Positions 36,767-39,405 of a DNA stretch of 64,000 nt are shown piece by piece. Every line of letters starts with the position of its first letter. Position 1 is the stretch's first letter. Position numbers and translations under genes: made by a program. The stretch comes from Candidatus Latescibacterota bacterium (lineage in GTDB: Bacteria > Latescibacterota > UBA2968 > GCA-2709665): NCBI GenBank assembly GCA_965248435.1, contig OZ252100.1, positions 1,344,001-1,408,000 on the forward strand, given 5' to 3'. Below the pieces are notes generated by a model, which was not told the DNA's origin, did not search any database, and saw only the letters and a program-made list of their open reading frames with translations.

Positions 36767-36934
36767 CGTTCACAAAGGTCCTTCTTACCAAAAAAAGCCC
36801 CATCCAAATTCCTCCGGATGGGGCTCCGAAGCACATCGTCGTGCCCTAAATCGAAGGTAGGGTCCAGCAGATGATAAGTCAAGCTATTTCTGAGCAGATA
36901 CTTGATTTAGGCGATTCGGTGCCACTGTTTTTCT

Positions 36935-39235
36935 CTACCTGGCGGCGACCCTGGCGACCCAAATACTGATTTCATAAAGCACGATGAGAGGTACGGCCAT
37001 CATCAATTGAGAAATCGGGTCGGGAGGCGTCAGGAGCGCGGCCAAAACAAACCCGGCCAGGATGGCGTAGCGGCGTCCCGCCCTCATCTTGGCCGCGGTC
37101 AGCAATCCCACCTTACTCAGAAAAAAGGTCGCCACGGGCAGCTCGAACACGACACCGAACGCGAGAAGCAGGCGAAGCACGAAACCGATATACATTCCGA
37201 TATCAAACTGAGGGGTTATTCCAGTGCCGGACGTCATCCCGACGAGGAAAACGAGGGCGATCGGTATCACGGCGAAGTAGGCGACGGCGGCGCCTGCCGC
37301 GAAGCAGAACGCTGAGGAACCGATGATAAAAATCACATAGCGTTGCTCATTTCCGTAGAGCCCGGGCGCGACGAACATCCAGAACTGGTGAAGCACGAGG
37401 GGCAGAGCAAGCAGGAAGCCGCCGACGAGCGCGATGTTAAGCCTGACGACAAACATCCCGATCGGTTTGAGGGTGATGAGTTCGGGACTGACCTTCATTC
37501 CCTGCACGGGCAGTGTCAGAAGTTTTAGAAGCTCATCCGAAAAAACGGCACACAGGATCGCTCCGGCCACGATTGCTGCCAGTGATTTCAAGATGTGCCA
37601 CCTGAGTTCCTCCAGGTGGTCCAGAAACGGCATCGCCTTCTCCCCTTCGGGGATCGAAGGTTCCGGATCCCGCGCAGGAACCTGTCCAACCGCGGCCTTT
37701 GGAAGGATGGTTCGCTCTTCAAACGTGCTGCCTGGAGGGAAAAAAGAAAGCCCGAGCAGCGCGACCGCAAGCAGCCCGCAGACCTGTGAAAATAGATCTC
37801 CGTATTGCGTGTAGAAGGTCATCTGAGTGCGCGCGGCAACCGTTCCAATGAGCAGGGCTTCGTGAAAGATACCCGTGGTCTGGTCCTTCCTTCCCAGTGG
37901 GTCGATCAACGTGGAAACGCCCGTATTCGCACAACGAACGACCGCCCGCCGATTTTCAATTGCCCTGAAAACTGCCGCCTCGGCGTGCTGATACGGACCG
38001 GAGGTCCTTCCAAACCATCCGTCGTTCGTAATTACGACAAGATACTCGGCTCCCCTCGATACCAACTCCCTAACAAAACCTGGGAAAACAGAATCGAAGC
38101 AGATGAGTGCCGAAAACCTGGCTCCTGGTCCATCGAAGACGGTCAGTTGTTTGCCCGAATCAAAATTGCCACTCACGTAGCCGGCTCCCGTAAATCTGAT
38201 CTTACGTAAAAACGGAAGGAGCTCGGGAAAAGGGGCGCGTTCGCCGAACGGGACCAGCTTGATCTTGTCGTACCTCTGCAGGGAAGACTGGCCGGGCGAC
38301 AACAGGAATGAAGAGTTGTAAGATCTAACGGGCGGGCCTGCCTCCACGCGATGTGCGCCCGTGTAGAGATAGACCTGAAGAGAATCCACATAGGCCTGAA
38401 GCCGGTCTCTGTAGCGCCGGTGGAATTCACTCTCCAGGTAGGCCTTCGTGGCTGTCTCTGGCCAGACAACGAGATCGACGCCGCTTTCCACTGCAGGACG
38501 CGTCAGCTCCTGCAGGATGTTGAAATTGTATTCAAATCCCAGGTCCTGCTTGGCGAGGGGCGGGATGTTGGGTTGTACCGCTCCTATTGATACGGGACGC
38601 CCGTCTAGTGGCGTTGAGAGCCGAAGCAGACCGTAAAGCGTGGGAACTCCGAACAGAACGATGAGCGCCACGACACCTGCAGCCAAGCGTAATCGTTGCC
38701 GCACGATCGCGAGCACCGTCAAATTCACGACGACGATCCAGAAGGAAACGCCGAAGACGCCGGTAAACTCGGCATACTGAATCAACGGGAGATACTCCGT
38801 CTGCGTGATTCCGAGCAGTGCCCACGGAAAACCCATGTCGCCGATCGAACTGAAGTATTCGAAGGCCACCCATATGAAGGGCGTGCTCCAAAAGCCCAGG
38901 ACTCCGAACCGCCTAACCACTCTGCTCAGCACCCATAGAAAAAGCCCTCTAAAGAGGGCCATGTAGACAATCGCGCCGGCCATACCGGGGAGCGTGATCC
39001 AGGAAATCCAATAGATCGTCGCGGAATAAAATACGGTGCCCTGGATCACGCCGGCGCCGAATGCGGCTCGCCCCTGCAGCCGCTCCGCCGAAAGCAGGAG
39101 CGGGATCAGCCCGACGTAAGCCAGGAGTCCGAGAGGAAGCGGAGGGAAGGCTGCAGCTAGGATGAGCCCGGAAATCGCCGGATAGACGAGGAGAAGGGGC
39201 AGGGACTTTCGGCCGCCTGGGGCATCATCCGTCAT
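36935..39235 (-). CDS. lnt-tatC: Fusion of apolipoprotein N-acyltransferase Lnt (about aa 1-500) and Tat translocase TatC (aa 535-766)
   Basis: One 766-aa ORF. Lnt: GFPW, VQPNI, WPETA, YDK.KLVPFGE, ICFD, TNDGWFG, RAIE.R, ANTG.S. TatC: MPFLDHLEELR, W.FVAPGLY, FELP, TPPDPISQ, LYE. Confidence 0.93.
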   Translation of the reverse strand: MTDDAPGGRKSLPLLLVYPAISGLILAAAFPPLPLGLLAYVGLIPLLLSAERLQGRAAFGAGVIQGTVFYSATIYWISWITLPGMAGAIVYMALFRGLFLWVLSRVVRRFGVLGFWSTPFIWVAFEYFSSIGDMGFPWALLGITQTEYLPLIQYAEFTGVFGVSFWIVVVNLTVLAIVRQRLRLAAGVVALIVLFGVPTLYGLLRLSTPLDGRPVSIGAVQPNIPPLAKQDLGFEYNFNILQELTRPAVESGVDLVVWPETATKAYLESEFHRRYRDRLQAYVDSLQVYLYTGAHRVEAGPPVRSYNSSFLLSPGQSSLQRYDKIKLVPFGERAPFPELLPFLRKIRFTGAGYVSGNFDSGKQLTVFDGPGARFSALICFDSVFPGFVRELVSRGAEYLVVITNDGWFGRTSGPYQHAEAAVFRAIENRRAVVRCANTGVSTLIDPLGRKDQTTGIFHEALLIGTVAARTQMTFYTQYGDLFSQVCGLLAVALLGLSFFPPGSTFEERTILPKAAVGQVPARDPEPSIPEGEKAMPFLDHLEELRWHILKSLAAIVAGAILCAVFSDELLKLLTLPVQGMKVSPELITLKPIGMFVVRLNIALVGGFLLALPLVLHQFWMFVAPGLYGNEQRYVIFIIGSSAFCFAAGAAVAYFAVIPIALVFLVGMTSGTGITPQFDIGMYIGFVLRLLLAFGVVFELPVATFFLSKVGLLTAAKMRAGRRYAILAGFVLAALLTPPDPISQLMMAVPLIVLYEISIWVARVAAR

Positions 39236-39331
39236 GCCGATCCCTTGACTGCGTGGAGTTAGCGATCAATAAGGCTTCGAGGGTAAGATTTTCCAGGTGG
39301 CTGTGGGCACTTTCCAAGGAGGAATGCGTAG

Positions 39332-39405
39332 AATATAAGCGAGCCCAGAATCCTTGTCAAATCTGGGATCGCGGGTTTGACAAACCGCCCTGGCCCATAT
39401 ATCTT
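39332..39405. promoter_or_regulatory. Back-to-back sigma70 promoters for lnt-tatC (-) and the bioF-like gene (+)
   Basis: Minus: TTGACA (39360-39355), 17 nt, TATATT (39337-39332). Plus: TTGACA (39377-39382), 17 nt, TATCTT (39400-39405). Confidence 0.7.

Follow-up and report, generated by a model that had tools for sequence, protein, structure and literature searches.

The locus described here lies in a stretch of 64,000 nucleotides (C1:1344001-1408000; hereafter "the window") of the genome of a marine Latescibacterota bacterium, an assembly of 5.67 Mb in two contigs that is 97.5% complete. On the reverse strand, one open reading frame (ORF) of 766 codons plus stop encodes, without interruption and in this order, a complete apolipoprotein N-acyltransferase (Lnt), a disordered linker and a complete TatC beginning at residue M535 (Table 1). 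Lnt performs the last of the three steps of lipoprotein maturation, lgt and lspA being responsible for the earlier ones, and TatC is the receptor of twin-arginine signals in the twin-arginine translocation (Tat) export machine. The protein is termed below the Lnt-TatC fusion.

The two halves and the frame that joins them

The original prediction, made from the letters of the window, described an uninterrupted ORF with a full Lnt and a full TatC, and profile searches confirm it. On the 766-residue protein, Pfam places LNT_N (PF20154) at residues 22-172 and CN_hydrolase (PF00795) at 217-467, each above its cut-off, and TatC (PF00902) at 539-749, with 225.8 bits against a cut-off of 25.1 and a match over profile positions 1-208 of 208. 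The NCBIfam models agree, both for lnt (TIGR00546; 343.7 bits vs. a cut-off of 132.9, profile positions 4-394 of 395) and for tatC (TIGR00945; 205.8 bits vs. a cut-off of 132.7).

In the Lnt half, residues E260, K324, E332 and C379 align to E267, K335, E343 and C387 of Escherichia coli Lnt (reference 8Q2P), that is, to the catalytic triad E267/K335/C387 or, together with E343, the tetrad given for that enzyme in the available text of PMC8048626, and the four are invariant in all 112 aligned fused proteins. The Glu/Lys/Cys triad anticipated by the original prediction is thus present, although its lysine had been sought in the motif KLVPFGE and the aligned one is K324, in "YDK". Three residues reported as essential in E. 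coli Lnt (PMC3850990) are changed here (W237 to Q230, Y388 to F380 and E389 to D381); since functional mycobacterial Lnts are described as retaining just five of seven essential residues (PMC3850990), these losses do not exclude activity. The model of the fusion superimposes on the E. coli Lnt structures with a template-modelling score (TM-score, target) of 0.82-0.85, and Foldseek matches to the E. coli and Pseudomonas aeruginosa enzymes reach E-values of 2.8e-26 to 1e-23 and TM-scores (target) of 0.79-0.85 over some 510-540 columns. Judging from its intact residues, the Lnt half is presumably active and would carry out N-acylation.

Regarding the TatC half, the alignment to the crystallised TatC of Aquifex aeolicus (4B4A) pairs M535 with residue 1 of that protein and extends to the last residue, which places the start of TatC at the internal ATG where it had been predicted. 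H540, E543, F621, Y627 and E630 align to H12, E15, F94, Y100 and E103 of E. coli TatC, reported to bind the twin-arginine motif in core-complex structures from 2026 (PMC13323110, available text). Among the 112 fused proteins, H540, F621 and E630 are invariant, as are M535, F537, L538 and L541; E543 is retained by 90% or more of them, and Y627 by less than 90%. Against 4B4A, the TatC half of the model gives a TM-score (target) of 0.91 and a root-mean-square deviation of 2.1 over 224 columns. The TatC half likewise looks functional and would presumably support transport while fused. The topological viability claimed for the fusion also holds, as both Lnt termini are reported to be cytoplasmic (PMC8048626) and the TatC module begins at the native TatC N-terminus.

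The full chain, modelled by AlphaFold2 with the family alignment, has a mean predicted local distance difference test score (pLDDT) of 87.0 and a predicted TM-score of 0.69; in the Foldseek structure comparison, no solved chain covered both of its halves. Complex prediction between the Lnt module (1-500) and the TatC module (535-766), from family alignments and run without controls, scored 0.00 in both runs, which speaks neither for nor against contact between the modules. The linker runs from where the last Lnt helix ends, near residue 497, up to M535, and its pLDDT falls below 50 for residues 504-533; the Pro/Glu-rich linker foreseen in the original prediction does exist, with its length corrected from about 35 to about 37 residues.

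The frame across the junction is backed by assemblies from several sources. One public run carries positions 36900-39400 identically and is probably the source of the assembly. A contig of 8389 bases from another study (X7) spans all 2501 bases of this interval with 76 substitutions and 0 gaps, one from a third study (X5) spans 36900-38294, where it differs by 38 substitutions and no gap, and a contig piece from a fourth (X8) lies over 37534-37748. The contigs of the public runs list no insertion or deletion relative to the window in 36900-39400; the mapping across the linker that had been proposed as a check therefore finds the junction bridged, without indel or stop. Of 84 substitutions, 40 were read in contigs: 25 are synonymous, 15 change an amino acid and none creates a stop.

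The fusion ORF is the single tatC match of the genome and its single lnt above cut-off, and the check for other copies of either gene returned none beyond it. The genes lgt and lspA are single-copy, located elsewhere and unlinked to tatC. No tatA or tatB had been seen in the window, and the two TatA-family genes (PF02416; 69.3 and 59.4 bits), both coding for short TatA-like proteins, indeed lie outside it, at C1:717858 and C1:4542049.

Table 1. Features of the lnt-tatC locus, with their positions in the window
Feature	Position	Strand	Basis
lnt-tatC fusion ORF	36935..39235	-	profile matches; junction bridged by independent contigs, no indels
Lnt module, residues 1-497 (LNT_N membrane domain and CN_hydrolase periplasmic domain)	37745..39235	-	profiles, alignment, model
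Catalytic-residue span: E260 (38458-38456), K324 (38266-38264), E332, C379 (38101-38099)	38099..38458	-	alignment to E. coli Lnt
Cytoplasmic linker, residues 498-534, Pro/Glu-rich, predicted disordered	37634..37744	-	pLDDT
Shine-Dalgarno (SD)-like GGGGAG, -12..-7 from the internal ATG	37640..37645	-	sequence match
ATG of M535, putative ancestral TatC start codon	37631..37633	-	aligns to A. aeolicus TatC Met1
TatC module, residues 535-766	36938..37633	-	profiles, alignment, model
Sigma-70-like promoter TTGACA-17-TATATT, ~97 nt upstream of the start codon	39332..39360	-	11/12 hexamer matches, consensus match only
Terminator-like hairpin, 15-bp stem and T-run, ~108 nt past the stop codon	36794..36827	-	pattern match only

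Distribution and origin within the class

The fusion is the rule in the order to which the bacterium belongs: all 53 genomes (families f1 and f2, the window genome included) match both modules with no stop. In 50 of them the protein is full length in one frame, with 764-841 residues; the exceptions are G006, split over two contigs, G085, which starts at a contig edge, and G029, with matches from residue 82. The fusion is kept in the order down to 56-58% identity, without reversion. A search for Lnt-TatC proteins in other genomes had been suggested as a check on the window, and with the whole order fused neither a private loss of a stop codon nor an assembly error explains the ORF.

Outside the order, the sister family f3 has lnt directly upstream of tatC and unfused (G078, G079). 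In family f4, TatC lies in a frame of 801-983 residues in 31 of the 73 genomes with a TatC match; for 30 of these 31, an Lnt match occurs in a frame of equal length, and the junction was read in nine. In seven genomes, lnt and tatC share a frame that one TGA or TAG interrupts, and in other relatives the two genes are neighbours in different frames or lie 1.5-30 kb from each other. Among the matches listed for 36 genomes of other classes, none spans both modules, and where a genome has both lnt and tatC among these matches, the two are far apart or on different contigs. Separately, TatC was found in a 653-residue frame at G042:C452:3882-4511 and in a 553-residue frame at G065:C7:6161-6790; these two genomes belong to other classes and have no adjacent lnt, and other fusions or upstream run-on frames are possible there.

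Protein collections give a similar picture. Within 5.8 billion clustered proteins, a TatC query restricted to long proteins gave 334 matches, and among the best 120 there are 114 with CN_hydrolase and TatC, 109 of which also have LNT_N. Among representatives at 50% identity (1.84 billion), two of the best 150 matches are fully fused and the remainder cover the Lnt part only, and the ESM Atlas contains one Lnt-TatC cluster, mostly from Latescibacterota. From these distributions, the fusion appears to be confined to this class; records labelled as Gemmatimonadetes by their submitters fall inside its clades. The source names of the fused proteins are only "apolipoprotein N-acyltransferase" or "hypothetical protein"; name-based reconstructions could consequently score a whole order as lacking TatC.

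Across the class, lnt lies directly upstream of tatC as a conserved gene order, and the junctions of the relatives comprise separate frames, a shared frame with one stop, and fused forms. The beginning of TatC, MPFLDHLEEL, is identical in fused and unfused forms, with conservation starting exactly at the Met; in five of the seven single-stop forms a Met stands 1-3 codons past the lnt stop. Some TatCs may hence already possess an acidic N-terminal extension, which would turn into the linker on loss of the stop. A careful maximum-likelihood tree of 41 concatenated Lnt and TatC sequences (200 bootstraps, root not fixed) needs three changes between the fused and unfused states (bootstrap 5-95% range, 3-3), and a single change suffices in 0/200 bootstrap trees. 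With an unfused ancestor, this would mean three gains; one gain followed by two losses would also add up to three changes.

What the fusion may do

The explanation that we favour, with moderate confidence, is that a tightly linked lnt-tatC pair has become a bifunctional single chain, both modules doing their normal jobs with Lnt held beside the Tat receptor. The gene itself is genuine, and its selective maintenance is part of this explanation. The fusion arose when an ancestral lnt-tatC pair, already closely spaced, lost the stop codon of lnt, and its product would be a single inner-membrane polypeptide composed of Lnt (by homology, eight transmembrane helices and a periplasmic nitrilase-type domain), a tether and TatC (six transmembrane helices, also by homology). 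The disordered cytoplasmic tether would fix Lnt and TatC at 1:1, side by side in the membrane. Both modules would retain their normal roles because they are the sole copies in the genome, and the likeliest benefit would be the placing of Lnt next to the Tat receptor. A single-chain product, the activity of both halves and any coupling between them are all things that we infer.

Tat signals with a lipobox-like Cys are unusually frequent in the class. Tat signals were taken as TIGR01409 matches read in frame, up to seven being sampled per genome, and a lipobox-like Cys was sought after the h-region with a loose pattern; matches lacking a clean RR signal (1, 3, 1 and 4 by group) were excluded. 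The window genome has 12 matches with E<=1, seven of them over the cut-off (one only with its neighbours in frame) and 11 with a clean RR signal. The count of predicted Tat lipoproteins, proposed as a check, gave a lipobox-like Cys in 6/11 clean Tat signals of the window genome, in 11/27 of five other fused genomes, in 10/25 of five genomes with adjacent, unfused genes, and in 7/56 of ten genomes with lnt and tatC far apart. Recurring lipobox-bearing substrates are an MsrP-like protein, a TRAP-type binding protein and a molybdenum oxidoreductase.

Some of these substrates deserve separate mention. In two MsrP-like paralogues of the window genome, G000, that lie outside the window (C1:312096 and C1:3469439; "RGWEI.EREATPE...RR.FL."), the Tat signal ends in LLGC, and an MsrP-like protein with a lipobox-like Cys also occurs in the far-apart genomes G049 and G050. 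G051 and G056 (family f10) have 98 and 79 TIGR01409 matches vs. 4-13 in 19 other genomes, a large expansion of Tat substrates, with a lipobox-like Cys in 0/13 of their sampled Tat signals.

Several points count against the favoured explanation. Linked and far-apart genomes differ in the frequency of lipobox-like Cys (27/63 vs. 7/56), with a naive Fisher p of 2.5e-4 that is overstated, as the enrichment sets one class against the rest and the same substrate families recur. Furthermore, the enrichment is no higher in fused (11/27) than in adjacent-unfused genomes (10/25; p = 1), so it tracks linkage and not fusion; it is a lead toward a functional reason behind the lnt-tatC linkage, and not evidence that the fusion itself matters. 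As Lnt is the last of three maturation steps, and lgt and lspA lie elsewhere, unlinked to tatC, a coupled station becomes less logical. Either protein also occurs joined to unrelated partners, and fusion alone hence does not imply a shared function. Transmembrane helix 1 of TatC is described as forming the twin-arginine pocket and packing against the amphipathic helix of TatB in (TatBC)3 (PMC13323110, available text), and a membrane module of some 500 residues at its N-terminus might hinder assembly. Lastly, that the old start Met is so strictly kept would agree with internal initiation still taking place.

The strongest competitor, possible but clearly less probable than the bifunctional chain, is an opportunistic and functionally neutral fusion, in which adjacent, co-oriented genes whose products have cytoplasmic ends were merged by loss of a stop, the halves work independently, and the merged gene lasts simply for being harmless. 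Three changes in one class together with single-stop intermediates mark the step as mutationally easy, the linker is disordered and poorly conserved, and both the joining of either protein to unrelated partners and the equal Tat-lipobox frequency of fused and adjacent-unfused genomes point the same way. A neutral fusion, however, sits poorly with its retention in 53/53 genomes of the order across so wide a range of identity, and with a conserved lnt-tatC adjacency in the class that coincides with many lipobox-bearing Tat signals.

Rather unlikely is the most specific proposal, namely that Lnt-TatC chains build the Tat receptor complex, each TatC bringing along an N-acyltransferase, and that the third acylation of folded Tat lipoproteins happens at the translocon. 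If true, a protein translocase and an enzyme of lipoprotein modification would here be linked covalently for the first time, in a union that selection favoured on three independent occasions within one class. The original prediction had gone in this direction, suggesting a coupled export-and-maturation unit for folded Tat lipoproteins, a suggestion that stays plausible rather than supported. As the genome has no other lnt and no other tatC, each half must also serve all ordinary substrates and neither is dedicated to Tat lipoproteins; besides, lgt and lspA are not linked to it, and the enrichment is equal where the genes are adjacent and unfused.

An improbable alternative concerns the number of products: ribosomes would also start at the ATG of M535, the resulting free TatC would build the translocase, and the full chain would act mainly as Lnt. 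At the level of transcription, the promoter upstream and the hairpin downstream make the fusion gene look monocistronic, and it is probably transcribed alone; a consensus scan gave no internal promoter, which speaks against two products. The hairpin separates the gene from a downstream Memo-like gene, and the neighbours (the Memo-like protein, a metallo-beta-lactamase-fold hydrolase, a Na/Ca exchanger, an aminotransferase and a SpoU methylase) have no obvious link to the fusion.

The start codon itself speaks for internal initiation. M535 is Met in 112/112 aligned fused proteins and ATG in 29/30 fused loci while the residues just upstream vary, and its equivalent in E. coli TatC is Gln7, so that Met is not a general structural need; it may nonetheless be structural here, next to the invariant PFLDHLEEL. 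The SD-like motif noticed near this ATG is present, and its GGAG begins at -10, inside the SD peak of the genome, which has a canonical anti-SD tail and a GGAG/GAGG maximum at -14..-9, with SD-like 4-mers at 30.2% of 3217 first ATGs vs. 11.7% of 19586 internal ATGs genome-wide. Such a 4-mer lies at -17..-5 in 11/30 fused loci vs. 2-7/30 in other linker windows, yet 19/30 fused loci have no SD-like motif. One fused locus, L048 (G156:C83), is alone in having ATA (Ile) at the TatC start codon, which would mean that the single chain is needed in at least one lineage; this ATA may be real or an error of the metagenome-assembled genome, and the close relative P0115 keeps Met. Two N-extended TatC-only proteins, P0114 (428 residues) and P0118 (431 residues), may be over-long gene calls. 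The fusion point lies beside the signal pocket and the TatB contact (PMC13323110, available text), a position that could speak for a free TatC, although a flexible tether could equally make it tolerable.

It is quite improbable that a cytoplasmic or membrane protease cleaves the completed chain within its linker, yielding normal Lnt and TatC. An exposed, disordered linker would allow it, and some motifs of the linker are conserved within subclades ("[ST]ILP" in f1, "EGTVPA...PDRELPDxGKP" in f2 and "DxWLDEPxAPDxD" in a third group). Nevertheless, linkers vary in length and sequence among relatives, each fused clade having its own, of about 35-110 residues; the three fused clades share no conserved linker motif, and no known cleavage signal was identified in the linker. 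Finally, an assembly or sequencing artefact or a decaying pseudogene was rejected as next to impossible, given independent contigs bridging the junction without indel, a fusion carried by the entire order, substitutions that are mainly synonymous and create no stop, and invariant functional residues in the sole lnt and tatC copies of the genome.

Comparison with known systems

Overall, the Lnt-TatC fusion is real, conserved and recurrent, a joining of two well-known proteins that is apparently undescribed. No description of it was found in the literature searched, which left supplements and subscription journals outside its reach: the main text of a survey of TatC diversity (PMC3827258) contains neither "fusion" nor "fused", and the available text of PMC5449189 mentions Latescibacteria only in a table on another protein family.

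A recurrent fusion of this kind can be taken as a "Rosetta-stone" hint that Tat export and lipoprotein processing are functionally linked. To our knowledge, few studies have addressed such a link in diderm bacteria. The fusion is also a natural experiment, in which TatC bears a membrane protein of 500 residues at its N-terminus, at the site of signal binding and TatB contact in the 2026 (TatBC)3 structures, and its separate, single-stop and fused relatives are suited to the study of how membrane-protein fusions originate and of the continued use of old start codons.

When compared with free Lnt (E. coli 8Q2P/5N6H) and free TatC (A. aeolicus 4B4A; E. coli 9DZZ), the corresponding halves show family scores above cut-off together with the catalytic residues and the fold in the former case, and family scores above cut-off with the signal-binding residues and the fold in the latter. 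The differences lie in the single polypeptide with its disordered tether, in the Gln at the place of W237 and in the Phe/Asp at that of Y388/E389. Adjacent, unfused lnt-tatC pairs (G078 and G098, and the single-stop G116, G120, G121 and G131) share with the fusion the gene order, the strand, the MPFLDHLEEL start and, in some cases, the frame; they differ by the stop codon, and sometimes a frame change, between the genes.

Both proteins have other partners elsewhere. In P0117 and P0120, TatC (19-229) is followed by the quinolinate synthase NadA (339-673); one source is candidate division KSB1, and the annotation is NadA only. The partner of TatC in P0117 thus sits at its C-terminus, whereas that in Lnt-TatC sits at its N-terminus, next to the signal-binding site. 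Among P0236, P0170, P0250, P0157 and P0176, other Lnt fusions were observed (Lnt-SNase, PAP2-Lnt and Lnt-LEA_2), two Lnt proteins of that set carrying some 340 additional residues at the C-terminus without any Pfam match.

Of the documented systems, Ppm1 of Mycobacterium tuberculosis and BCG (Rv2051c/BCG_2070c) comes closest: it joins an Lnt domain to a polyprenol-monophosphomannose synthase domain, and Mycobacterium smegmatis encodes the two in separate, adjacent genes (MSMEG_3860/3859), as reported in the available text of PMC3850990. As in Lnt-TatC, the fusion takes place at the Lnt C-terminus and follows an adjacent-then-fused pattern; unlike in Lnt-TatC, the partner is a cytoplasmic glycosyltransferase and not a subunit of a membrane translocase, and the fusion belongs to another phylum.

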